Positions 5,003 to 36,208 of a stretch of DNA of 43,126 bases are shown piece by piece; within the stretch, counting starts at the first letter, position 1, and each line of letters starts with the position of its first letter. The notes beneath the pieces were generated by a model. It had not been told where the DNA came from. It searched no databases and saw nothing but the letters and a program-made list of their open reading frames with translations. The DNA comes from Nitrospirota bacterium. Its GTDB lineage: Bacteria; Nitrospinota_A; UBA7883; JAJRTC01. The DNA lies in contig JAJRTC010000202.1 in assembly GCA_024278445.1 (NCBI GenBank), positions 1 through 43,126 of the forward strand, written 5' to 3'. Both the position numbers and the translations under genes were made by a program.

Positions 5003-5145
5003 TTGCCCTTTTTATTCCTGCCGCCTCTCAACTCATTAAAAAAACAACAACATAGGCTAGTTAATCAAATCCTCCTTTTTCTTCCCTAAACTTTACAATA
5101 GTGCTAGCATATACGTGTAACTTAAATTCATATAAGGTTTTACCA

Positions 5146-5829
5146 ATGAAAAAGAAAAATGCCAACGAGGAGCTTTTTAACGTTCTTGGCTCCGATATCC
5201 CAATATCCTTTCTTCGCGATATTCCGCACATTCAGGTGCAGTCGTATAGCGAGGCCAATGAGTGTGTTAAAAATGACTATAGGTTTGCTGAACCTGAAGC
5301 AAAATACCTTTTGCCGCATATACGCCGAGCAAAGTTCGAACAGCTTTTCCGCCGACGCGCACTAGATTGTGGGCTTGTAGCAACAGTTGAGAGCACAAGA
5401 AAAAATGCGAATTACACTTTAGTTCGAGCTGGCAGATTTCTGCTTACCGCTTCGTTTGCTCATAATGAAAAGGAATTTGTGCGCCCTGCTCATTTTCGCT
5501 CACAACACGCTTACCTTAATTCGCTTCTAGGCCAGATGGACATGTTTAAGCCCAAAGGTGATGTCCCTCCCAATGATCTTTACGGCATCATTCGTCATGG
5601 AGTGTCCAAAACTAAAAGTGAATCTAAGAGGGACGAAGAGTCCAAAGATGAGAGCTATTTTTTAACAATAGCTATTCCATCCGAAGACAATAAAAGTTGG
5701 GTAGGGAATTATGACTTATTGGATATGATAAAAGTCAACGAAGAAAGAATTAACAGAATGGATTCTGCAGAAGAATTAGATATAGCAGTTCCAATGCCTA
5801 AACGTAAGGATATTCAAGGGGGGGAATAA
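5146..5829 (+). CDS. Hypothetical protein with no recognisable domain; candidate toxin/effector partner of the downstream HTH-peptidase
   Basis: Long ORF (the track gives 5101..5829; ATG 5146 MKKKNANEE is preferred). The stop TAA 5827-5829 abuts the next ATG. AT-rich codon usage. No TM segment or catalytic motif was seen. There is a charged KTKSESKRDEESKDES stretch. Confidence 0.6.
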   Translation: MKKKNANEELFNVLGSDIPISFLRDIPHIQVQSYSEANECVKNDYRFAEPEAKYLLPHIRRAKFEQLFRRRALDCGLVATVESTRKNANYTLVRAGRFLLTASFAHNEKEFVRPAHFRSQHAYLNSLLGQMDMFKPKGDVPPNDLYGIIRHGVSKTKSESKRDEESKDESYFLTIAIPSEDNKSWVGNYDLLDMIKVNEERINRMDSAEELDIAVPMPKRKDIQGGE

Positions 5830-7032
5830 ATGGGAGTTCCAAACACTGGTTTCTTTGGTGCACGGCTTGTTCAAGCAAGGGAGGTGAGGGGTTTATCTTG
5901 TTCTGACATAGCGCGTCAAATAGGGGTTACAAGAGCTTCTGTATCTAATTATGAGTTAGGTAAACAGTCCCCTCGACCCGATATGTTGGAAAAAATAGCT
6001 TCAATGCTAAATGTACCAATACCCTTTTTCATGCGTCCAGTTCCAGAGTTTAAGCAGAATACTGTTTTTTACAGGTCTAATACGACGGCAACAAAAGGTG
6101 CAAGAAAAAGAGCTGAAAAACGGTATGAATGGCTTCAGGAAGTAGTTGTCTATCTGCAAGAGTATTTTGATTTTCCAACTCTTAATCTTCCCACTCTTGA
6201 TATTCCAAAAGATTTTGAAGAAATTTCTATGGATATGGTTGAAGAAATAGCTCTGGAATGTAGAAAATTCTTTGGGATTGATCCGGGGCGAGTTCGCAAC
6301 ATGGTTTTACTCTTGGACAATAATGGCGTCCTTGTTCCTCAAGGTTATTTTGAAGCTGAGAAACTAGATGCATTTTCGGATACGCCTGCAGGGGGCCATC
6401 CTTTGGTTTTTCTTGGTTTGGACAAAGCTAGCGCCGTACGATCTAGATTTGACGCGGCACATGAATTGGCCCATCTGTTGCTCCATAAACATGTAAATCA
6501 AAGACATATAAACGGCAATAGAGCTTTTAAAATCATAGAAAATCAAGCGCACAGATTTGCTGGTGCCTTTCTCCTGCCGGAAAGTGATTTTTTAGAAGAA
6601 CTATGGTCTCCGAATTTAGATACATTCCGCGCGTTAAAATCGCGTTGGAAAATATCTATAGGAGCGCAAATAATGCGGTGCACTCATTTAGAAATCGTTC
6701 CAGAAGACCAATTAAAACGATTGTGGATAAACTATAATCGAAGAGGCTGGAGAAAAAACGAACCACTAGATGATAGGTTGGAAAGAGAGGAAAGTCGAGT
6801 GTTGCGGAGAAGCTTTGAATCTTTGATTGGGGGGAATATTAGGAGCAAAGAACAAATTCTTATGGATTTAAGGTTGCCGTCGGGGGATATTGAAGAGTTC
6901 TCAGGCCTTCCAATCGGTTTCTTTTCAGATAAAAAAGCTGAGATACTGCCTTTACCTAGAGTAAAGAACGCAAAAGAAAACGCTTCAAAATCAAGTGAGC
7001 GAGGGAGATTGATTAATTTCCCCAAAAGGTAA
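5830..7032 (+). CDS. XRE-family helix-turn-helix fused to an ImmA/IrrE (COG2856, peptidase M78) zinc metallopeptidase domain
   Basis: N-terminal HTH (LSCSDIARQIGVTRASVSNYELGKQSP), HELAH at 6460-6474 followed by ENQAHRFAGAFLLPE and KSRWKIS. A strong SD (AAGGGGGGG) lies upstream of ATG 5830. Confidence 0.85.
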   Translation: MGVPNTGFFGARLVQAREVRGLSCSDIARQIGVTRASVSNYELGKQSPRPDMLEKIASMLNVPIPFFMRPVPEFKQNTVFYRSNTTATKGARKRAEKRYEWLQEVVVYLQEYFDFPTLNLPTLDIPKDFEEISMDMVEEIALECRKFFGIDPGRVRNMVLLLDNNGVLVPQGYFEAEKLDAFSDTPAGGHPLVFLGLDKASAVRSRFDAAHELAHLLLHKHVNQRHINGNRAFKIIENQAHRFAGAFLLPESDFLEELWSPNLDTFRALKSRWKISIGAQIMRCTHLEIVPEDQLKRLWINYNRRGWRKNEPLDDRLEREESRVLRRSFESLIGGNIRSKEQILMDLRLPSGDIEEFSGLPIGFFSDKKAEILPLPRVKNAKENASKSSERGRLINFPKR

Positions 7033-16917: not shown

Positions 16918-18507
16918 CTACTTGGCGGGTGCCTTTCCCAGATGGGTTTTCAGGCGCTCGATAGATTTATCCAGCCCCAGCAAGACGACAAAACTGCCAA
17001 TTTTCGGGCCGGACGATTGCTTTAAAAACACAAGGTAGAGGGTTTTGAACCACTGCTTCATGTTTATATCACGCTCTTTGGCGGCACGAAACGACATGTT
17101 CTGTATAACGTCCGCTTCCGGCTTGTCGCCTGCGTTTTTCAGCTTTTCTAGCTCTTCGCAAAAAGCCAAGATAGCCTCGTCATAATCTCTTGACGGCTCT
17201 TCATCTACCTTGCGGGCAAGATAAACTTCTTTGTAATACTTCAAAACCTCGGCTATAAGCTGGTTAAAATATTCCATGTTCTCCGCTATCTTCGGCTGAT
17301 ACTTTAAAAGATATTCGCGCACGATGGCAGGATCCGTTTCGTTTAAGGCTAAAACGAGGTTGTATATCATTGAATAGTTGACGGCCTTATCGTCTCCCAT
17401 GGCGACGGCGTGAGCCCCTTTGGACAAGCGCGTGATAAACGTAACGGGAGAATCTACGGTTTCGCCGTCATATTTCGCCACAAGCTCAAGGTACTGGTCG
17501 ATAATTTTTGGCAGTAACGGCAAACCCATCTTTTTTGTTTGCTGAGGTTTTATGTACATAAAATAGAGGAGCGAATCTACAGGGCCATAGGAGAGCCACT
17601 GGTCGATAGAGACGCCGTTACCTATTTTCTTCGATATTTTTTTGCCATCCTCGTCGAGAAAAAGCTCATATTTAAAAAGCTCAGGCGGCTTGCCGCCAAT
17701 AACGCGGACAAGCTTTTTGGATAACCTGCCAGATTCCATGAGGTCTTCGCCGTGCATCTCGTAATCGACGCCAAGCGAGAACCACCTCAACGCCCAATCG
17801 ACTTTCCAGCCAAGTTTTAAGGTGCCGTCGAATATAGAGACTTCGCCCGTATGGCCGCAAGCGGTATATTTGCCTTCAAGCGACGAGTCGCAAACGTAAG
17901 ACACTTTATAGTTTTCCGTATCGTGGTTCGTCACGCGGGTGGAATATATTTTGCCGCAGTTTTCGCATACAGGAAAAAACGGGCTCCACGCGGCCCTTTT
18001 GTCTTCACTTATAGTTTTGGTAAAAAGTTCTATTATCTTCTGGTTATTGTTCATAACCCGTTTGAGCCCGTCATTGAATGCGCCTGCGGAATACTTTTCG
18101 GTCGATGACGCAAACTCGTATTCAAACCCGAATGAGTTCAGAAACTCCTGCAGTTTCCGGTTCATGTTATGTGCAAAAGATTTTTCTTCGCCGAAAGGAT
18201 CCGGAACGGAAGTTAACGGTTTTCCCAGGTGTTCTATTACCATGTCGCGGTTCGGGATGTTTTTTGGCGCTTCGCGCAACCCGTCCATATCGTCGGAGAA
18301 GGCTATGAGGTGCCGGTCTATCTCTGGCGCGATAATTTCTAGCGCCTTTAGCACAAACGACGTTCTGGCGACTTCGCCAAAGGTGCCTATATGTGGCAGG
18401 CCGGAGGGGCCATATCCTGTTTGGGCCACGACATTAGTTTTACCCAGCCGATCAAGCCTCTCTTTTATCCGCTGAGCCTCAATAAAAGGCCATTCTGTAT
18501 AATTCAT
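16918..18507 (-). CDS. lysK: Lysine--tRNA ligase, class I
   Basis: The class I signature GPSGLPHIGTFGEV (HIGH-type), KISKKIGNG (KMSKS-type), ~530 aa length, and a zinc-like CENCGK motif. Confidence 0.85.
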   Translation of the reverse strand: MNYTEWPFIEAQRIKERLDRLGKTNVVAQTGYGPSGLPHIGTFGEVARTSFVLKALEIIAPEIDRHLIAFSDDMDGLREAPKNIPNRDMVIEHLGKPLTSVPDPFGEEKSFAHNMNRKLQEFLNSFGFEYEFASSTEKYSAGAFNDGLKRVMNNNQKIIELFTKTISEDKRAAWSPFFPVCENCGKIYSTRVTNHDTENYKVSYVCDSSLEGKYTACGHTGEVSIFDGTLKLGWKVDWALRWFSLGVDYEMHGEDLMESGRLSKKLVRVIGGKPPELFKYELFLDEDGKKISKKIGNGVSIDQWLSYGPVDSLLYFMYIKPQQTKKMGLPLLPKIIDQYLELVAKYDGETVDSPVTFITRLSKGAHAVAMGDDKAVNYSMIYNLVLALNETDPAIVREYLLKYQPKIAENMEYFNQLIAEVLKYYKEVYLARKVDEEPSRDYDEAILAFCEELEKLKNAGDKPEADVIQNMSFRAAKERDINMKQWFKTLYLVFLKQSSGPKIGSFVVLLGLDKSIERLKTHLGKAPAK

Positions 18508-26043: not shown

Positions 26044-28683
26044 TCAATGATTTACGTTATCAAGCGCTCTCCTGATAACCTCGCTTAGCACGCTTTTGGA
26101 GATGGGCTTCATCACAAAATCAACAATACCCATGTCGCGCGCAATCTCCTCGTTTACGGTGTGGCTGTAACCTGTGCATAACACAACAGGAGTGTCGGGG
26201 CTAATGCGTAAAACCTCGCGGGCAAGTTCGATACCGGTCATGGAAGGCATCGTTTGATCCGTTAAGACGATATCGAATGATTCAGGTGCCGATTTAAAAA
26301 GATCAAGCGCGTCACACGGATTGGAAACCGCAACAACGTCGTAGCCCAAGCGGCTCAACGAACGTTCAACCATCATCGCGATGCTCTCCTCATCGTCAAC
26401 ATACAAAACGCGCTCGCTACCGCCTGTAGAAAAGATAAAACCGGCCTCGTCCTCAACAACAGGATGTTTCTGAACGGGAAGATAGATGGTGAAAGTGGTT
26501 CCCTTCCCAAGCTCGCTGGAAACGGTTATCAGGCCGCCATGGTCGCACACTATCCCGTGAACCACCGAAAGCCCCATGCCGGTTCCCTCTCCCACATCTT
26601 TCGTTGTGAAAAAAGGCTCAAAAATACGGTCGGCAGTCTCCTTGTCCATCCCGTGCCCCGTATCGCGTATGGTTAAACGCACATAAAAACCGGGTGCCAC
26701 GCCTTCATGTAGCGATGCAAAATCAGCGTCTGCTTCAAAACCGCCAAGAGTTATCTTCAGCACCCCGCCATTTTTACGCATGGAATGCTCGGCATTCGTA
26801 CAAAGGTTCATGATAACCTGCGTTATCTGGGTACCGTTGGCCATTATGGCTGGAAGGCTGTCGTCTATACTTTCACGGATAGATATGGTGGAAGGGATTA
26901 TGGGGCGGAGCATAGCAAGCGTATCCCTTACCACCGTTTGCAAATACACCTGGTTTACGGCTTGCTCCCCGTCTCTACTGAACGTTAATATCTCCGCCAC
27001 GAGATCTTTGGCGCGGGCTCCGGCCTTCAGGGCGGCATCAAGGTTTTCTTTAGCTTCGCTACCTTCTTTCAGGTCATCGTTAGCAAGCTCGGTATAACCT
27101 ATAATGCCTGTGAGGATATTGTTAAAATCGTGCGCTATACCACCTGCGAGAGTGCCTATCGCCTCCATTTTTTGCGAGGCCCGAAGTTTACTTTCAAGCT
27201 TTCGGTCACGGGTCACGTCGCGCTGGAGGCTTACATAGTTAACTATCGCCCCGTCTTGTCCGCGAACCGGGGATATTACGCAATCAGAGTCAAAAAAGGT
27301 GCCGTTCTTTTTTTTGTTAACAAAACGTCCTTTCCAGATGTCACCTGCATATATGGTGTTCCACATCGTTCTGTAAAAGGTTTCGTCCTGTTTCCCGCTC
27401 GACAGGATATCAGGTTTTTTGCCAAGTATTTCTTCCCGGCTATAGCCTGTTACACCCTCGAAAGCCAGGTTGACATACTGGATCGTCCCGTCCTTATCCG
27501 TCATCACAACCATCTCGTCGGCCTGCTCAACAGCCGCCGCAAGACACGCGTTATCTGCGCTGGCGGCTTCTAATGACTTGTAAAAAAACGAAAGTTCACC
27601 TTCAACACGGTTTATGGTTATGTAAAAGAGAACAAACAGGAGCGCACCGGTAACAAGGCTTACGGCGCCAACCAGAAGCACGTAGTAAAGAGCTCCGGCG
27701 ATGACTCCCGTTATGTTCCACAATATATAGAGGCTTGCAACACTTCTACCGGACACATCTTCTAACCGCATGATATTTACGTCATACCGGCTGTTCATAT
27801 CATCTTTGTAAAAGAAATTCGCTATGCCTTTTTTTTCGTCTGAAAATATTTTGTCCCGGCCCGATTTCACAATCTTCAACAAGTTGCCAATATCACCAAG
27901 GGATGTACCTGCGATAACAGAATCCAAAAGGCTGTTCCACTTGCCCTTGTGCCCAAACATCCCACTCCCCTCTTCCCAGTCACTTTGCTTAAGGAGGTTT
28001 TTGTCTATCGTCAGGATAAAATCGACATCAAGCGTGTTCTTTATGTTTTCAAGAATGTGCCCGATCTCCTCCCCAAGCTCCAGGTAGCCTATCAACTTGC
28101 CGTCCACAATCCAGGGTGAGACTACACGGAGGGTTAAATGCCCGAATTTGCCAAGCTCTATCCCGTAAAACAGGTTTTGCGTTTTTTCAGCTTTTAAAGC
28201 TACATAACGATTTATAAGATCACCATAAAACGCAGGGTTGTGCACACGCAAAAAATTCACCCTGTTTGGGGTCTGAAAATAAAAATGTGTAACCTTTTGA
28301 TTTTTACTTAGTTCCTGATAAACAGGATTTGCGGAGGCAAGCAAGGCGCCACGGTCGCCTTTAACCATCAGGGCGGCCAGCTCCCTGTTTTCAGATATAA
28401 AACCTATGGATACGGCCAGGGCGGCGGCGTCTGAATTTATCTGCACCCTGAAAAGCTCAAGGGCAGACTCTGCCAGCCGTTCAGACGCTTCATCGATATC
28501 GCGCAGTTCATGCTGGTATGTGTTAAAAATAAAAACCCCAAGAAAAACTATCAGGGCAAAAGTGAAAGAAACCAGCAAACGGGCCTTGAAATTTATATTA
28601 CCCAAATCATGGTTCCCCCCCACCGAGTTGAGTTTACAGCGAGTTTTCGCAAAAACTAAAACCTTACAACCTCTTGGATTCAT
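26044..28683 (-). CDS. Hybrid sensor histidine kinase / response regulator (periplasmic sensor, PAS, HisKA, HATPase_c, REC)
   Basis: Two TM segments flank a ~300-aa extracytoplasmic domain. Other elements are PAS (MVVMTDKDGTIQYVN), the H-box GGIAHDFNN, G-boxes DTGHGM/GTGMGL, and a C-terminal REC (YVDDEE...DQTMPSMTG). Confidence 0.9.
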   Translation of the reverse strand: MNPRGCKVLVFAKTRCKLNSVGGNHDLGNINFKARLLVSFTFALIVFLGVFIFNTYQHELRDIDEASERLAESALELFRVQINSDAAALAVSIGFISENRELAALMVKGDRGALLASANPVYQELSKNQKVTHFYFQTPNRVNFLRVHNPAFYGDLINRYVALKAEKTQNLFYGIELGKFGHLTLRVVSPWIVDGKLIGYLELGEEIGHILENIKNTLDVDFILTIDKNLLKQSDWEEGSGMFGHKGKWNSLLDSVIAGTSLGDIGNLLKIVKSGRDKIFSDEKKGIANFFYKDDMNSRYDVNIMRLEDVSGRSVASLYILWNITGVIAGALYYVLLVGAVSLVTGALLFVLFYITINRVEGELSFFYKSLEAASADNACLAAAVEQADEMVVMTDKDGTIQYVNLAFEGVTGYSREEILGKKPDILSSGKQDETFYRTMWNTIYAGDIWKGRFVNKKKNGTFFDSDCVISPVRGQDGAIVNYVSLQRDVTRDRKLESKLRASQKMEAIGTLAGGIAHDFNNILTGIIGYTELANDDLKEGSEAKENLDAALKAGARAKDLVAEILTFSRDGEQAVNQVYLQTVVRDTLAMLRPIIPSTISIRESIDDSLPAIMANGTQITQVIMNLCTNAEHSMRKNGGVLKITLGGFEADADFASLHEGVAPGFYVRLTIRDTGHGMDKETADRIFEPFFTTKDVGEGTGMGLSVVHGIVCDHGGLITVSSELGKGTTFTIYLPVQKHPVVEDEAGFIFSTGGSERVLYVDDEESIAMMVERSLSRLGYDVVAVSNPCDALDLFKSAPESFDIVLTDQTMPSMTGIELAREVLRISPDTPVVLCTGYSHTVNEEIARDMGIVDFVMKPISKSVLSEVIRRALDNVNH

Positions 28684-29834: not shown

Positions 29835-31361
29835 TTATATCTCCTGCTCTTTAACAGATCGAAGATGAACAGGGCGGTCCGTCTCCGGTTCGCCATGAAG
29901 TGAAATACGGGCTCCGCTAGCTCGTCTTGCGCGTTCCGCCGCCTCTTGAGCTTTTAAAATAAGCTCCTTAAGTTTGAGGCCGTCAGCCGGATATAAAGCG
30001 GCCCCGACAGCCGTTGAAACATGGATGTCATAACCACCGTAGAAAAACGGAGCGCCGTCAACCGCCTCCACGATAGACTTTATTTTTGGAACGACCTCAT
30101 CGCGCGAGGCGTTTTCAAGCAAGATAATGAACTTGCCGTAATAACGGCTTACCACGCCATCAACGCCAACGGCTTCTGCTATCCGCTCCGCCGTTTCTCT
30201 TAGCACGTTCTCCCCGTCTTCAAAGCCCAACCTTATGTTTATCTGCGTAAAGCCTACTATATTCAGCATAAGAACAGCCCCTGCACCTTTCAGGAAGGGC
30301 CTGTTATCCAAAAGGCTTTGATGGGAAATCATTCCGGTGACAGGGTCCGTTTGCGCTTCAATCTGTTTTTTTCTGCTAAACCGTAAACCTTCAAACGCAG
30401 ACGAAAGGGAAGATGCGAGGATAGCCAGGGACTTCAGGTCGACATTGCGAAATGCCTTTGCGTTGGCTGATACAAGGCCGATAGCACCGATAGCATTTTG
30501 CATGGCCATTACCGGCGCTCCGATAAAAGAGCGCCATTTACCAGAAGAACCAGGGTAAACCTCCACGCCCTTTAAATCGGGTATGCGTATCGGCCTGCCC
30601 TGCCCTATAACCCATCCTAAACGGTAGTGAGTAAGGGGTAGAACGGGTTCCGGCCCAACTCCAAAATCGGTAGAAGCCACACGCACCATGCAAAACCCGT
30701 CGTCGTCAAGCGAACGAACCGCCAGCAGAAGCTGGTCGTGACGTATATGCGCCCCCATATTCATTTTAAGGGTATGCGCAAGCCCGGCAAATTTTTCACA
30801 CACAGAAACTTTATCAATTATGTCGGATAACGCCTCAAACGCAACAGCCTCGGAATCAAGTTTTATCCTGTGTCTGCCATGAACTATGGCACTTGAGATA
30901 GCGCAGGTAAAATCACTCAAAAGCTTCACAATTTTATTCGTAAAAATATAGTGTTGCTTGCTGTCTATGGAAAGAACGCCTATAACCCGGTCTCCATCGA
31001 AAACCGGTGCGGCGGCGAAAGATTTTATTTCCTCGTCCTTTGAATAAAACCAGAGGGTTTTGGTATCGCGATCATAGTTGGTGGCATGGGTGGCTCTGCC
31101 GTTTTTCGCAACCCAGCCCACCAAACCACGCCCGACAGGTATTGAAGCGTTTTTTATGACGTTGTTTGAGAGGGACTGAAACGCAGAGAGCCTCAAGATG
31201 TCTTCGTCCTGGTCGTCAACCAGAAAAAGTGCGACGGTAAAGGCGTCGGTTACGTTGCCTACCAGCCGCACAAGGTTTTTGAGTTCGCAGTCAAGAGCTT
31301 GCGGCATACCCCAAAAACCCCGTTCCCCTCGATAAATATTAGCTTTAGATAAATCGCACAC
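29835..31361 (-). CDS. GAF-GAF signalling protein with a degenerate GGDEF domain
   Basis: Two GAF-like regions, then DPVTGM... with RYYGKF (30129-30146) in place of R-GGDEF. The start is uncertain (GTG 31361 or ATG 31307). Confidence 0.65.
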   Translation of the reverse strand: MCDLSKANIYRGERGFWGMPQALDCELKNLVRLVGNVTDAFTVALFLVDDQDEDILRLSAFQSLSNNVIKNASIPVGRGLVGWVAKNGRATHATNYDRDTKTLWFYSKDEEIKSFAAAPVFDGDRVIGVLSIDSKQHYIFTNKIVKLLSDFTCAISSAIVHGRHRIKLDSEAVAFEALSDIIDKVSVCEKFAGLAHTLKMNMGAHIRHDQLLLAVRSLDDDGFCMVRVASTDFGVGPEPVLPLTHYRLGWVIGQGRPIRIPDLKGVEVYPGSSGKWRSFIGAPVMAMQNAIGAIGLVSANAKAFRNVDLKSLAILASSLSSAFEGLRFSRKKQIEAQTDPVTGMISHQSLLDNRPFLKGAGAVLMLNIVGFTQINIRLGFEDGENVLRETAERIAEAVGVDGVVSRYYGKFIILLENASRDEVVPKIKSIVEAVDGAPFFYGGYDIHVSTAVGAALYPADGLKLKELILKAQEAAERARRASGARISLHGEPETDRPVHLRSVKEQEI

Positions 31362-31515: not shown

Positions 31516-32522
31516 ATGATCGCAACCAAAAAACTTCATGACGCCCTCTACTGGAAAAAGGTAACGGGCACTGAAAAAATTCAATGCGTCCTTTGCCCTT
31601 TTAACTGCATTCTCGTAGAAGGCAAGGTCGGCATATGTCACGGCAAACAAAACACAGGCGGAAAACTTTACGCCACGAATTATGGCAAAACGACCGCGCT
31701 GGCCTGCGACCCGATCGAAAAAAAACCGTTATATAACTTTTACCCGGGCACACGCATTCTCTCAGCCGGGCCTAACGGCTGTAACTTAAGGTGTCACTTC
31801 TGTCAAAATTGGCAGATATCACAAGAAACCGCCCGCACCATAAATGTGACGCCTGACGACATGGTTTCAAGCGCACTGCGTGAAGGGGCCGTTGGCATAG
31901 CCTACACATACACCGAACCGTTGATCTGGTTTGAGTTCGTTCTCGACACGGCAAAAGCCGCAAAAGCTGTGGGCCTTAAAAACGTTCTGGTCACAAACGG
32001 CCTTATAAACGAGGAGCCGCTAAAAGAGCTTTTGCCTTTCATCGACGCTATGAACATCGATATAAAATCGATGGACGACGGGTTTTACAAAAAATCTGTA
32101 AGGGGACTATAAACCCCGTGTTGAAAACGGTAAAAACGTCGGCAAAAAAAACTCATGTCGAAGTGACGAACCTCGTTATCCCCGGATTAAACGATACAGA
32201 CGAAATGTTTGAAAAACTAACTGACTTTCTGGCAGATATAAATCCGCTGATACCGCTTCACTTTTCAAGATATCATCCGAATTTCAGGATCTCAAACCCG
32301 GTGACACAAGAGAAGACCCTTTATCGTGCGGCCCAAATTGCAAGGCGTAAGCTAAAACATGTATATATCGGCAACATTCCCTCAGACACGCATAACCAGA
32401 CGACATGCCCCACATGTGGAAAACTGGTGGTTGAACGGGCAGGATACACTCTACTGAAAATGTCTGTTACCAACGGGTTGTGTAATTTCTGCGGCTCTGA
32501 AACCGGTGTGGTAACAAGCTGA
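31516..32522 (+). pseudogene. AmmeMemoRadiSam system radical SAM enzyme, interrupted by a -1 frameshift in an A6 run
   Basis: The N-part has CVLCPFNC, DPIEKKPLYNFYPG and GCNLRCHFCQNW. The frame breaks at A-run 32089-32094 (FYKKSVRGL*). With one extra A it would read FYKKICKGTINPVLKTVKT..., continuing into ORF 32118..32522 (NLVIPGLNDTDE, FSRYHP). Confidence 0.75.
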
Positions 32523-32641
32523 CAACGAAGCAAGTTACCCACTTTACCCCATAAGAATCAGAAACTTTACAAAACCGCTCGTAACCTTATCTTACTTCTC
32601 TTGCAACATCGTCACCTGCATAATCAGCGCATACATGACAT

Positions 32642-32670
32642 TTGTCCGATGTGGACAATTATGCTATAAT
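32642..32670 (+). promoter_or_regulatory. Sigma70-type promoter with extended -10 (TTGTCC - 17 nt - TGcTATAAT) upstream of the first haem-porin gene
   Basis: TTGTCC at 32642-32647, TG at 32662-32663, and TATAAT at 32665-32670. It lies ~185 nt upstream of ATG 32854. Confidence 0.5.
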
Positions 32671-32853
32671 TGAGACGATTTATACGGTCAGTATATGAAA
32701 ATTGCATTCTACTTTAGTGACTGTCTATGTAAGTAGACGTAATTATCATAGTTCGAGGGGTTTATTTGGTCAGTAAACAGCCTTTTTGACTTCACAGGAG
32801 ATTTCCAGGAGCCAAAGCGATACCTACCTTAAGCGAAAGAGGAGCCAAACAAC

Positions 32854-34092
32854 ATGAGAAAACAGGTTAACCTACTACTGGCGTTTGTTATAGCCATCGC
32901 CAGCATATTGCTAATGACACCCGCCACGAGCTCTGCCATGCCAAGTTTCGCACGGCAGACAGGCCAACCATGCATGACGTGCCATTTCCAACACATACCG
33001 AAGCTCAACGCTTTCGGACGCAATTTCAAACTCAACGGCTTTACCGACGCATCAGTAGATTTAATCGAGGACGACAACCTGTCTTTGCCGGGCCCGATGA
33101 TTCCCTTGTCTTTCATAACCAAAATACGCTATGTAAAAACCGAGGCCAGAAACAGTTCTGGCGTAAAATCCGGCACGGAGCGGGGTGAATGGCAGATACC
33201 GGACGAAGCCGCATTCATGCTCTCCGGTCGCGCAGGTGAACATGCTGGCTATGGATTTGAGATCGCCGATGGCAAAGTAGGCAACGCCAAGCTCGTGTTC
33301 CCGGTCTATAAAGGCGATATAACTGCTGGTTTTACCCTCCACACAACGGAAGGTCACGGGCCTGCAACCGCTATGGAACTTTTCAACACAGGTATACTTC
33401 CCTCCCAGCGTGGTTTTGAGTCGCGCAGAGAGGCGTTTGCCGCGCAAAAAGTTCTCTGGAGCGGATGGGGCGGTAAATCAACCGGCGCAGGTGTCTATGC
33501 CGGTTCAGACATGTTCATGGTCTACGTCACGGCTTGGGCGCCATACTGGGGTGTTGAAGACAAAATAGACACAGGCTCTGATATGTCCATTTATTATCGT
33601 GCCGCTGTCACGCCAACCGTGGGTGACTGGGACCTGATGTTTGGCGTCGCCGGTGCGAGCGGTGAAACCAAGTGCGTCGAGTGCGAGGGTTCAGGCGCGA
33701 CAGTAGTTACCAGCACCGAGACCGACATGATTATGATCGACGCCCAGGCTCAAGGTGAAATCGGCGGCATGACGCTTGAAGTTAACGCTTCATGGGTTGA
33801 CGCAGGCAATACAACTCCTACCGAAACTAACCGCAGAAACCTGTGGAAAGAGGCCAACGCATGGAGTTTGGCCGCCTCACTCGGAATCACACCCACCATT
33901 GGCCTAAAGGCGGGTTACGTCGATTACACAGACAAGAGCGCCGCGTCCGATGTGGATACTACCTCCGTGGTTCTTGGAGGATGGTATGCCATTGCCCAGA
34001 ACATTTACATCATACCGGAATATTCCTGGTATAACGATGAAGGCAGAGAGAACGACAACCAACTTACCCTGATGCTGTTCATGGGCTTCTAA
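32854..34092 (+). CDS. cyc2: Cyc2-like fused monohaem cytochrome c - outer-membrane porin
   Basis: AGGAG SD. A signal peptide ending SSA, then MPSFARQTGQPCMTCHF (CXXCH at 32971-32985). The rest shows alternating amphipathic beta-strand patterns, with C-terminal ..LMLFMGF (terminal Phe). Confidence 0.7.
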   Translation: MRKQVNLLLAFVIAIASILLMTPATSSAMPSFARQTGQPCMTCHFQHIPKLNAFGRNFKLNGFTDASVDLIEDDNLSLPGPMIPLSFITKIRYVKTEARNSSGVKSGTERGEWQIPDEAAFMLSGRAGEHAGYGFEIADGKVGNAKLVFPVYKGDITAGFTLHTTEGHGPATAMELFNTGILPSQRGFESRREAFAAQKVLWSGWGGKSTGAGVYAGSDMFMVYVTAWAPYWGVEDKIDTGSDMSIYYRAAVTPTVGDWDLMFGVAGASGETKCVECEGSGATVVTSTETDMIMIDAQAQGEIGGMTLEVNASWVDAGNTTPTETNRRNLWKEANAWSLAASLGITPTIGLKAGYVDYTDKSAASDVDTTSVVLGGWYAIAQNIYIIPEYSWYNDEGRENDNQLTLMLFMGF

Positions 34093-34113
34093 AGCTGCTT
34101 TTTGAACACTTCA

Positions 34114-34143
34114 CCCCCGCCTTTTAAAGGGCGGGGGTTTTTT
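34114..34143 (+). terminator. Rho-independent terminator
   Basis: CCCCCGCC - 8-nt loop - GGCGGGGG, followed by TTTTTT. Confidence 0.85.
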
Positions 34144-34240
34144 ACGATATTGGCTGGGCATAAAGCCTGCAAAGCCGAAGTCACCAGCCAGAACACCTTT
34201 ATTTTTCAAATTGTTAAACATATACCTATTGCAATTTAGG

Positions 34241-34269
34241 TTGACTTTTCAAAAGAGTTGCTGTAAGTT
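34241..34269 (+). promoter_or_regulatory. Candidate sigma70 promoter (TTGACT - 17 nt - TAAGTT) for the second haem-porin gene
   Basis: Based on hexamers and spacing only. Confidence 0.35.
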
Positions 34270-34292: not shown

Positions 34293-35276
34293 GTGCGCCC
34301 ACACGCTAAAGTTATTATGAGGAAGCATTTTTTTTCGCCGGTTGTTCTGGTGATTACGGTCGTTTTGGTGTTCGCGACGGGGGAATTGTGTTCCGCCATG
34401 CCGAACTACGCGAGGCAATCGGGTGTTTCATGTTTCGACTGCCATTCCAAAACCACAAACCCCGTGAGGAAAATGAAACCCGTAACAGGCGATACGCCCT
34501 CAGCCTATTCTGTTCCGGTCACAACGAAAGGTGTTGACGCGGGTTTTTCCATTCACACTGACCAAACGGAATCAGTATGGAGCGATATCACCCGCCTTCA
34601 GCACGGCGGCAGGGAAACAAAACTGCGCCTTAACAGCCACTCAGACGAAGCTCAAGACAGCCGCACATTAAAAGGTATCTCCACCCAGATTAACGGCAAG
34701 AGTTTTACGGCGGGCCTTGGCCTCGTTCGACAAGGCCTTACTCCAGATTCCAAACAGTCGCAAGACATGTCCGTATGGTACAGGCTGGCCTATAAACCCT
34801 CTTTAGGTAGGCTCAACATGACCGTTGGGCTATTCGGCTCATCATCGTCTTACGGCGAAGGCTCGCCTCTTGGCCTGAAAGGGCCCTACATGAGCTTCGC
34901 GCCCGAATCTTATGGGCTCGACGCCAAGATAAACGGCCGCATAGGCGAAGTCACTTTAGATCTTAAGGCCATGTATCTTAGCCGAAACACACACCCGGCA
35001 GAATCAGCCCTTGGCAACGACGGAGTAGACGACGGGTTTAGCGCATCGGCAAAGGTTAGCCTTTACGACGCTTTCGGTTTAAGCGCCGCATACCGCACAT
35101 ATAAAAGAGCGTCGGTGCAAGCCTCTGATAGCAGAAATATAACGTCTATAGGGGCGTGGCTGAACCTTGCCGACAACATGACGCTGGCATCGAAATACAC
35201 ATCTTTTGGTTCGTCAGACAAGGAAATACTTACAGAAGACAGCGTTTTCTCACTTCTCTTCATCACAAGTTTTTAG
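34293..35276 (+). CDS. Short divergent haem-porin paralogue (signal peptide, single CXXCH, beta-barrel-like body)
   Basis: GAGGAG SD before GTG 34293. A signal peptide ending CSA, then MPNYARQSGVSCFDCH (CXXCH at 34431-34445). Amphipathic strand patterns, with C-terminal ..FSLLFITSF. Confidence 0.6.
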   Translation: MRPHAKVIMRKHFFSPVVLVITVVLVFATGELCSAMPNYARQSGVSCFDCHSKTTNPVRKMKPVTGDTPSAYSVPVTTKGVDAGFSIHTDQTESVWSDITRLQHGGRETKLRLNSHSDEAQDSRTLKGISTQINGKSFTAGLGLVRQGLTPDSKQSQDMSVWYRLAYKPSLGRLNMTVGLFGSSSSYGEGSPLGLKGPYMSFAPESYGLDAKINGRIGEVTLDLKAMYLSRNTHPAESALGNDGVDDGFSASAKVSLYDAFGLSAAYRTYKRASVQASDSRNITSIGAWLNLADNMTLASKYTSFGSSDKEILTEDSVFSLLFITSF

Positions 35277-35461: not shown

Positions 35462-36208
35462 CTAGAAGCGTTCGCCAACAAGCGGTGTGCGCAGTTCCTG
35501 TTCGATTCTGTCAAACATGGAGTTCGTAACTATGATGCTCGGCTTTGCGTTCACCCACTTGCGCCCGTCCCTCACTTCAGCAAAAGGAATGACCTTGATC
35601 TGGGTATAACTCCCGCGATCAAGCATCCTGATAGTGTATCTGTATCGAATAGCAAAGGAACGCGCGTTAACCGGGGTTAAAACGTCAAGAACGGTTGACG
35701 ACTTCATTTTATCTACAACCCATTCTGTAATAATGATTCCGCTGGAGCGATCTACAGTAGAGAGAGGGGTATCTAAAATAGCCTCAAGCGCCCTGCTCCA
35801 CGCAACGCCAAAGCGCATAGGATAATCTTTTTGTACGGCGTTGTTGTCGTATGTAAAAACTTTGGTAGGGGTGGCAGATTCGTCTACAAGCGGCGCAGAA
35901 GCGCCTTTTGCCGTTTCGTCTATCACCTCAAAATATTTGCGGCTCCCAGCCGTCCCCTTTAGTTGCTCGACTTTCAGGACTTTAGGCCGGCTCAAGGTGG
36001 TGCGTAGCTCGTTTTTTGTGGCGATAGGGTTCACCCTGTTTGTTTTCAGGCCGGACGGAGTAACTCCACCGCCACCCTCCCCTTTGGTTTCGCTTTCGGC
36101 CTTGCCTGTTTCGTCGTGCCCCCATATAAGTTTCGGGGTAGAACAGCCAGACACAATAAACGCGAATAAAACAGCAGGTAAAACAGTAAGCGCGAACGTT
36201 TTCTTCAT
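35462..36208 (-). CDS. Lipoprotein, DUF3576-like
   Basis: MKKTFALTVLPAVLFAFIVSGC lipobox from ATG 36208. The C-terminal half (FGVAWSRALEAILDTPLSTVDRSSGIIITEWV) resembles DUF3576. Confidence 0.5.
   Translation of the reverse strand: MKKTFALTVLPAVLFAFIVSGCSTPKLIWGHDETGKAESETKGEGGGGVTPSGLKTNRVNPIATKNELRTTLSRPKVLKVEQLKGTAGSRKYFEVIDETAKGASAPLVDESATPTKVFTYDNNAVQKDYPMRFGVAWSRALEAILDTPLSTVDRSSGIIITEWVVDKMKSSTVLDVLTPVNARSFAIRYRYTIRMLDRGSYTQIKVIPFAEVRDGRKWVNAKPSIIVTNSMFDRIEQELRTPLVGERF

Follow-up and report, generated by a model that had tools for sequence, protein, structure and literature searches.

A Cyc2-type cytochrome-porin gene and a short Cyc2-like paralogue in an uncultured Nitrospinota bacterium: a candidate route for Fe(II) oxidation

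Cyc2, in which a single N-terminal haem c is fused to an outer-membrane porin, is the gene most often used as a marker of iron oxidation by neutrophiles. The family falls into three clusters, between which sequence identity is 6–16% (table in PMC10654088). Clusters 2 and 3 are represented by Cyc2 of Acidithiobacillus ferrooxidans and Cyt572 of Leptospirillum, respectively, both of them acidophile proteins with demonstrated Fe(II) oxidase activity, and Cluster 1 holds Cyc2PV-1 of Mariprofundus ferrooxydans and the proteins of Gallionellaceae and Chlorobium. For Cyc2PV-1 (from Mariprofundus PV-1), Fe(II) oxidation has been demonstrated in vitro, and its midpoint potential is 208 mV (PMC8406198). 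Here, we describe a gene, open reading frame 1 (ORF1), on contig JAJRTC010000202.1 of assembly GCA_024278445.1, the full 43,126 nucleotides (nt) of which are referred to as the window, which almost certainly encodes a Cyc2-family haem-porin, as well as a second gene directly downstream of it, ORF2, which encodes a shorter Cyc2-like protein. Both come from an uncultured, vent-type member of the Nitrospinota whose affinities are with class UBA7883 and the BMS9AB35 group.

The recognition criteria that we applied to ORF1 are those of Keffer et al. 2021, namely a signal peptide, a single CXXCH, the motif AXPXFAR[Q/K][T/Y] upstream of the haem site, which is stated to be unique to Cyc2, a PXL four residues downstream of it, a length of at least 365 amino acids (aa; the FeGenie and Keffer filter), and a 16-strand porin like OprO/OprP (PMC8406198). 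ORF1 carries every one of the published sequence and fold features for which it was tested. Its N-terminus reads MRKQVNLLLAFVIAIASILLMTPATSSA and, beyond the predicted cleavage site, MPSFARQTGQPCMTCHFQHIPKLNAFGRNFK. Read by eye, the signal peptide comprises MRKQ, a hydrophobic core and TPATSSA, with cleavage before the Met that follows, and residues 2–19 are helical in the structural model described below. The upstream motif is present as A28-M-P-S-F-A-R-Q-T36, separated by G-Q-P from C40, and H44 is followed by F-Q-H-I and then by P49-K-L51, while the length of 412 aa exceeds the published filter. Across 32 aligned homologues, the signature columns show little or no variation (A28, P30, R34, Q35, C40, C43, H44 and L51 being strictly invariant), and exactly one CXXCH is found in all 120 of the 120 best homologues. 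The protein contains four cysteines in total, C40 and C43 in the haem motif and a further pair, C274 and C277, and it ends in ...LMLFMGF. An initial annotation, made from the sequence alone, had already called ORF1 a Cyc2-like cytochrome-porin, pointing to a Sec signal peptide leading into the sole CXXCH, to a P-x-F-A-R-x5-C-x-x-C-H motif given as typical of Cyc2, and to about 350 aa of amphipathic strands ending in ..LMLFMGF. Inspection of the sequence and the cysteine count bear out the first of these points, the published motif agrees with the second (PMC8406198), and the modelled barrel accounts for the third.

The barrel prediction proposed in that annotation was performed with AlphaFold2, using the 32-homologue alignment, and gave a barrel (mean predicted local distance difference test, pLDDT, 81.7; predicted template modelling score, pTM, 0.80) in which 16 strands could be counted within residues 85–411. 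Long and short connections between the strands alternate in the manner of porins, and strand 5 is followed by a 43-residue loop with short helices, as in classical porins. Comparison of this model with the Protein Data Bank (PDB) by Foldseek returned 264 matches at E<=1e-3, with 16-strand porins as the best, among them OmpT, PorB and Omp32, and including OprP (2o4v, TMq 0.49) and OprO (4rjw, TMq 0.51), the structural analogues of Cyc2 reported by Keffer et al. (PMC8406198). Over these five porins, E ranges from 3e-11 to 1e-7 and TMq from 0.47 to 0.51. ORF1 thus shares barrel fold and strand number with OprO/OprP and with the general porins OmpT, PorB and Omp32, whereas these proteins have neither a haem domain nor the Cyc2 motif and are only 9–15% identical to it. 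The model puts the second cysteine pair between strands 9 and 10, in a loop predicted to be extracellular. Among the 33 closest homologues, 31 have this CxxC, and Gallionellaceae- and Chlorobium-type proteins lack it; it could stabilise the structure as a disulfide or bind a metal at the entrance of the pore.

Homologues of ORF1 number 514 in a collection of 5.8 billion proteins, and 349 related loci were found in species-representative genomes. A look-up of the exact ORF1 sequence in public assemblies returned no record. The best matches are a 92%-identical JGI protein and then proteins from Nitrospinota metagenome-assembled genomes (MAGs) at 43–54% identity, and full-length similarity extends to Gallionella sp. 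(30%, E 4e-45), Sideroxyarcus sp. (34%, L075) and Chlorobium sp. N1 (35%, P0108), compared with the 6–16% reported between Cyc2 clusters. A search with a Campylobacterota homologue as the query returned proteins of Sulfurimonas and Gallionella MAGs, with no isolate or Zetaproteobacteria names among them. A neighbour-joining tree of 197 sequences places ORF1 in a clade of 39 Nitrospinota members; another Nitrospinota clade and a large clade of proteobacterial/Gallionellaceae proteins lie apart from it. Because this tree contains no Cluster 2 or Cluster 3 references, and is not rooted with them, the assignment of ORF1 to Cluster 1 is an indirect one, and the sequence is best described as pointing to a Cyc2 of the neutrophile, Cluster 1-like type. 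Three Dive96 MAGs (L014, L015 and L021) encode proteins 40–46% identical to ORF1; the Dive96 bins are typed as Nitrospinota_A class UBA7883 in the supplement of a study of the Southwest Indian Ridge, which placed Nitrospinota Cyc2 homologues, not individually matched to these three, in Cluster I (PMC9769843). Likewise, in their work on inactive chimneys of the Manus Basin, Meier et al. 2019 noted a Nitrospinae bin that encodes a Cyc2 homologue, and ORF2 and the lipoprotein encoded beside it (see below) are 92% and 91% identical, respectively, to proteins of their NITROSPINAE01 bin. The order of genes around ORF1 (PCMT, MreB, GGDEF, AmmeMemoRadiSam-system radical SAM, cyc2, ..., lipoprotein, RNase R) is common to other Nitrospinota MAGs, and ORF1 is therefore a resident chromosomal gene. 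In one Nitrospinota MAG (L002, 8001-12092), two full-length cyc2 genes, whose products are 47% and 37% identical to ORF1, stand in tandem and are followed by the short paralogue.

Comparison with the described systems places ORF1 nearest to Cluster 1, with which it shares the signal peptide, the single N-terminal haem c motif, the AXPXFAR[Q/K][T/Y] and PXL motifs, a length of about 400 aa, the 16-strand OprO/OprP-like barrel and a monocistronic layout. It differs from the members of this cluster in forming part of a Nitrospinota clade of its own, in having no cyc1 or cbb3 genes nearby, and in belonging to a phylum known for nitrite or sulfur oxidation and not for iron oxidation, and from the Gallionellaceae and Chlorobium proteins in particular in its additional conserved CxxC, on a loop that is predicted to face outward. 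With A. ferrooxidans Cyc2 and Leptospirillum Cyt572, ORF1 has the fused monohaem cytochrome-porin architecture in common, but these are set apart from it by their description as acidophile proteins, and whereas the rus operon of A. ferrooxidans begins with cyc2 and also holds the genes of its partners, ORF1 stands alone. Like MtoAB, PioAB and MtrCAB, finally, ORF1 would represent an outer-membrane electron conduit that combines a barrel with c-type haem; however, those systems employ a separate 26-strand barrel and a membrane-spanning decahaem cytochrome, unlike the one polypeptide, one haem motif and 16 strands of ORF1 (PMC8406198).

By analogy with Cyc2PV-1, we propose that the ORF1 precursor would be exported by Sec and cleaved after Ala28, that haem c would become covalently bound to C40 and C43 with H44 as an axial ligand, and that the C-terminal 330 residues would form a 16-strand barrel in the outer membrane, with the small haem domain sitting at or in the periplasmic mouth of this barrel and plugging its periplasmic end. 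Dissolved Fe(II) would then enter the pore and be oxidised at the haem, from where the electron would pass to a soluble periplasmic cytochrome c and then either reach a terminal oxidase or be driven uphill to NAD(P)+, with the electron-accepting partners presumably encoded elsewhere in the genome. Taken as a whole, we consider it probable that ORF1 is a Cluster 1-like Cyc2 of a Nitrospinota host that operates by such a mechanism. Oxidation of Fe(II) by the protein itself is, by the same analogy, likely, at an equal or slightly lower level of confidence, and growth of the organism on iron is less likely than this.

Several observations weigh against Fe(II) oxidation as the physiological role of ORF1. 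There is no gene for a periplasmic cytochrome, a cupredoxin or a terminal oxidase in the 43-kb window; as there is also no CXXCH-containing open reading frame of at least 60 aa other than ORF2, the statement to this effect in the initial annotation holds. A conserved multihaem or cytochrome partner next to cyc2 was likewise sought in the relatives and rejected, since such neighbours occur only sporadically (L003, L007). Homologues just as similar to ORF1 are found in sulfur-oxidising symbionts that are not known iron oxidisers (tubeworm endosymbionts and Ca. Thiodiazotropha), Nitrospinota of class UBA7883 have been interpreted as sulfur oxidisers, with no mention of cyc2 or iron oxidation in the phylum-wide comparative study, and Keffer et al. 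themselves allow that Cyc2 may have other functions (PMC8406198). In addition, the haem region of the model is of low confidence (pLDDT <50 at residues 19–43); only the signal peptide and this region are poorly modelled in ORF1, and for the haem region this is expected, because the model contains no haem.

These points lend themselves to an alternative explanation in which ORF1 is a true Cyc2-family haem-porin that serves some purpose other than energy-conserving Fe(II) oxidation. It might detoxify Fe(II), act in the outer membrane as a sensor of iron or redox state, oxidise a different small, soluble reductant, or play an auxiliary part when a bacterium that is mainly a sulfur oxidiser grows on metal sulfides. 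To the symbionts can be added many other taxa with homologues that are not known to oxidise iron, and a role of this kind would also fit with the richness of UBA7883 genomes in rDSR, Sox, Soe and Sqr genes, with the inactive metal-sulfide chimneys that are the habitat of the nearest relatives, with the absence of iron-oxidation partners linked to ORF1, and with the functions that Keffer et al. leave open. However, the one Cluster 1 protein to have been tested biochemically does oxidise Fe(II), and the signature residues are fully conserved in ORF1. Furthermore, detoxification by Fe(II) oxidation would be the same chemistry, such that the alternative differs from energy-conserving oxidation in physiology and not in mechanism. 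We regard a role outside energy conservation as the leading competitor to energy-conserving Fe(II) oxidation, although an unlikely one.

Far less probable is that ORF1 is an ordinary general porin of the anion/phosphate type with a fortuitous CXXCH and no haem. Such a reading could draw on the fold, which matches that of general porins, on one homologue (P0112) that is named an OprO/OprP family porin by NCBI, and on the sole Pfam match of ORF1, which is to Porin_4 and sub-threshold (22.2 bits versus a cut-off of 27). The CXXCH and the flanking PxFARQ and PxL are, however, invariant or nearly so across phyla, and the motif is therefore not fortuitous, while OprO/OprP have no such N-terminal extension and profile searches of PDB sequences with the ORF1 family gave no match to any porin. 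An NCBIfam scan of ORF1 also returned no match, and neither Pfam nor NCBIfam holds a Cyc2 model; routine annotation would therefore call the protein hypothetical.

The features of the locus are collected in Table 1. ORF1 is laid out as a separate transcription unit, with a promoter-like site, a ribosome-binding site (RBS) and a terminator of its own. The strong promoter with an extended −10 element proposed in the initial annotation proved to be the best-scoring site of the region in a consensus scan, and the GC-rich terminator noted there was recovered as well; the leader that it described is also present, at about 177 nt where about 185 nt had been given. The palindrome holding the −35 element, a candidate operator, is identical in a 92%-identical relative (L088). 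TTGTCC-N5-GGACAA was also considered as a general operator and was rejected, since the only cyc2 genes preceded by it are those of the window and of the closest relative, and it is missing from more distant Nitrospinota loci. A Fur box upstream of ORF1 or ORF2 was similarly rejected, the best candidate agreeing at 11 of 19 positions, which does not exceed the background of the window. The leader has no match in Rfam at E<=1, and its predicted fold is no more stable than those of shuffled sequences (z −0.16). Nevertheless, the upstream region as a whole (32470-32860, leader included) is 91% identical to that of L088, and the terminator hairpin is kept in a second relative, L084, where the stem and its flanks differ in places. 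The conservation of about 90% across the upstream region and the spacer between ORF1 and ORF2, set against a synonymous divergence from L084 of 0.39–0.57 (ORF2, the lipoprotein gene and RNase R), suggests regulatory constraint on these non-coding stretches.

Table 1. Coordinates of the features at the ORF1–ORF2 locus, in positions of the window.
Feature	Position	Strand	Basis or remark
Sigma-70-like promoter candidate of ORF1, TTGTCC-17 nt-TGnTATAAT	32642..32670	+	Consensus scan, 10/12 matches
Perfect palindrome TTGTCC-GATGT-GGACAA, holds −35 element of the ORF1 promoter candidate	32642-32658		Exact match
ORF1 5' leader, ~177 nt	32677..32853	+	Read from sequence
RBS AGGAG, 9 nt before ORF1 ATG	32840-32844	+	Read from sequence
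ORF1, cyc2-type gene for a monohaem cytochrome c fused to a porin	32854..34092	+	412 aa, ATG start
ORF1 Sec signal peptide, residues 1-28, predicted cleavage after SSA	32854..32937	+	n-, h- and c-regions, sequence inspection
ORF1 Cyc2 signature A28-M-P-S-F-A-R-Q-T, G-Q-P, C40-M-T-C-H44, F-Q-H-I, P49-K-L51	32935..33006	+	Published motif and alignment
ORF1 single haem c attachment motif CMTCH	32971..32985	+	Only CXXCH in the protein
ORF1 predicted 16-strand beta-barrel, residues 85-412, beta-signal ...LMLFMGF at end	33106..34089	+	AlphaFold2 and Foldseek
ORF1 second CxxC, C274-V-E-C277, clade-specific	33673..33684	+	Alignment; topology from AlphaFold model
Intrinsic-terminator-like hairpin after ORF1, 11 bp with 8 GC pairs, then T run	34113..34138	+	Scan
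26-nt conserved block upstream of the ORF2 promoter-like element	34192-34216		Comparison with L084
Weak promoter-like element of ORF2, TTGACT-17 nt-TAAGTT	34241..34269	+	Kept in L084; below promoter-scan threshold
ORF2, short Cyc2-like paralogue	34293..35276	+	327 aa from GTG, or 319 aa from ATG 34317
DUF3576-like lipoprotein gene, lipobox ..IVSGC, convergent with ORF2	35462..36208	-	Pfam DUF3576, 23.6 bits versus cut-off 25

The gene directly downstream of ORF1 had not been recognised as Cyc2-like in the initial annotation. ORF2 begins MRPHAKVIMRKHFF...CSA followed by MPNYARQSGVSCFDCHS, with a signal peptide at the N-terminus and a terminal Phe, and its GTG start is preceded by a well-spaced GAGGAG, with the stretch from the GTG to the internal ATG showing synonymous differences from the orthologue. 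It has a single CXXCH, in the arrangement A-M-P-N-Y-A-R-Q-S, three residues, CFDCH, such that the Phe of PXFAR[Q/K][T/Y] is replaced by Tyr and the [T/Y] by Ser (P-N-Y-A-R-Q-S). The haem motif is followed by CH-SKTTNPVR in place of PXL, which is not found in any member of the short family described below, and both ORF2 (319–327 aa) and this family (283–334 aa) fall short of 365 aa. Only a sub-threshold Porin_4 match was obtained from Pfam and NCBIfam. ORF2 is nonetheless homologous to Cyc2, with a profile–profile probability of 100% (E 7.8e-41) over the haem motif and the barrel, and BLASTP against ORF1 gives E 4e-12, with 22% identity over ORF1 residues 150–412 and the N-terminal motif. Since the segment corresponding to ORF1 residues 45–149, which holds strands 1–4 of the ORF1 model, is missing, the ORF2 barrel probably has about 12–14 strands, roughly four fewer than that of Cyc2. 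An AlphaFold2 model of ORF2, constructed from 15 sequences, is too poor for a strand count (pLDDT 41.7; Foldseek matches not significant, E>=0.027), and this estimate is thus drawn from the alignment to ORF1. A search of PDB sequences with the ORF2 family profile gave nothing useful.

To place ORF2 among its relatives, we used an exhaustive HMMER search of 1.84 billion representatives, clustered at 50% identity. This yielded a rare, short family of about 22 clusters scoring at least 195 bits, with lengths of 283–334 aa and nearly all matched in one stretch, two longer proteins of 425–439 aa (P0151 and P0154) at the score boundary and, below 125 bits, nearly exclusively full-length Cyc2 of about 390–470 aa, matched in two stretches, besides a few fragments. 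Complete members of the family have one CXXCH, P-x-[YF]-A-R and a terminal Phe, with the exceptions that P0148 is N-terminally incomplete and that P0152 has no match to the upstream motif pattern, and every named member is from Nitrospinae/Nitrospinota. In Nitrospinota contigs, those of Tara Oceans included (L082, L086, L089 and L090), the short gene alone fills the slot that directly follows the radical SAM gene. The window, L002 (two copies), L005, L084 and L088 are the only loci with a full-length cyc2 directly upstream of the short gene. In three loci (L082 10980-13861, L086 9595-11248, L089 10443-12157), we also observed genes for a COX1-like protein of about 450–465 aa and a small CBB3-type cytochrome c, 1.5–4 kb from the short gene and joined in L082 by a CCP/MauG peroxidase; there is no equivalent in the window.

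That ORF2 is a truncated copy of ORF1 at a decaying locus, or that one or both genes are non-functional duplicates, might be thought from the frameshift in the adjacent radical SAM gene of the window and from the approximately 100 residues by which ORF2 is shorter than ORF1, but this is largely refuted by the coherent family of about 22 clusters with shared ends and motifs to which ORF2 belongs, by its ratio of non-synonymous to synonymous divergence from the orthologue (0.10, similar to 0.08 for RNase R), and by ORF1, which is intact with all conserved residues present. ORF2 is, as judged from these substitution patterns, a functional gene under purifying selection and not a truncated remnant. 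We found no paper describing the short family, and Cyc2 surveys would miss it because their filters remove any protein that lacks PXFAR or has fewer than 365 aa (PMC8406198). The class appears to be inherited vertically across Nitrospinota, pelagic lineages included, in a fixed slot downstream of the radical SAM gene. We suggest, tentatively, that ORF2 represents an undescribed minimal class of fused cytochrome-porin, its single haem being combined with a barrel that has about four strands fewer than Cyc2, and that it may constitute a vertically inherited, separate outer-membrane redox module. Such a module could act alone, with the neighbouring lipoprotein or with full-length Cyc2, and its substrate or role could be unlike that of classical Cyc2.

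The lipoprotein gene in question adjoins the short gene in the window and in seven other loci (L002, L081-L086), even where the upstream neighbours differ; it does not follow the short gene in L005, L087 and L091, and is 5 kb away in L089. A PDB sequence search with the lipoprotein profile found no relative. As all of the genomes with this pairing are related, it may reflect inherited synteny rather than a functional linkage.

Upstream of the cyc2 locus, the radical SAM gene of the AmmeMemoRadiSam system (31516-32522, +) is split into two open reading frames by a frameshift near 32098-32112. In L001 and L002, the orthologous gene reads through in one frame, and the frameshift is either a mark of a pseudogene or an assembly error. 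Further upstream are genes for a GAF-GGDEF protein (29835-31361, −), which is a member of the conserved synteny, and for a hybrid histidine kinase with dCache_3, PAS, HisKA, HATPase and receiver domains (26044-28683, −). Elsewhere in the window, the lysyl-tRNA synthetase (16918-18507, −) is of the class I type (PF01921), the less common form among bacteria, and at 5101-7032 (+) a 242-aa open reading frame with no Pfam match immediately precedes a regulator with helix-turn-helix and Peptidase_M78 (ImmA/IrrE-like) domains, an arrangement frequent in mobile or defence-related modules.

Cyc2 of the ORF1 type is not new to Nitrospinota, having already been noted in metagenome surveys of vents (PMC9769843; Meier et al. 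2019). The presence of a complete ORF1 in a conserved chromosomal slot nevertheless supports Fe(II) oxidation as a candidate metabolism in non-nitrite-oxidising Nitrospinota, a group that abounds in inactive sulfide chimneys, in groundwater and at vents. Genes of this kind had been flagged by the vent surveys, whereas Fe(II) oxidation is not among the traits considered in the phylum's main comparative genomic study. The short family, so far confined to Nitrospinota, together with its lipoprotein neighbour and the predicted outward-facing CxxC of ORF1, provides concrete hypotheses about variation in cytochrome-porin design. The family also exposes a blind spot of marker-gene screens that filter by length and motif, and the overlooked short paralogues could amount to a previously undescribed version of the cytochrome-porin.

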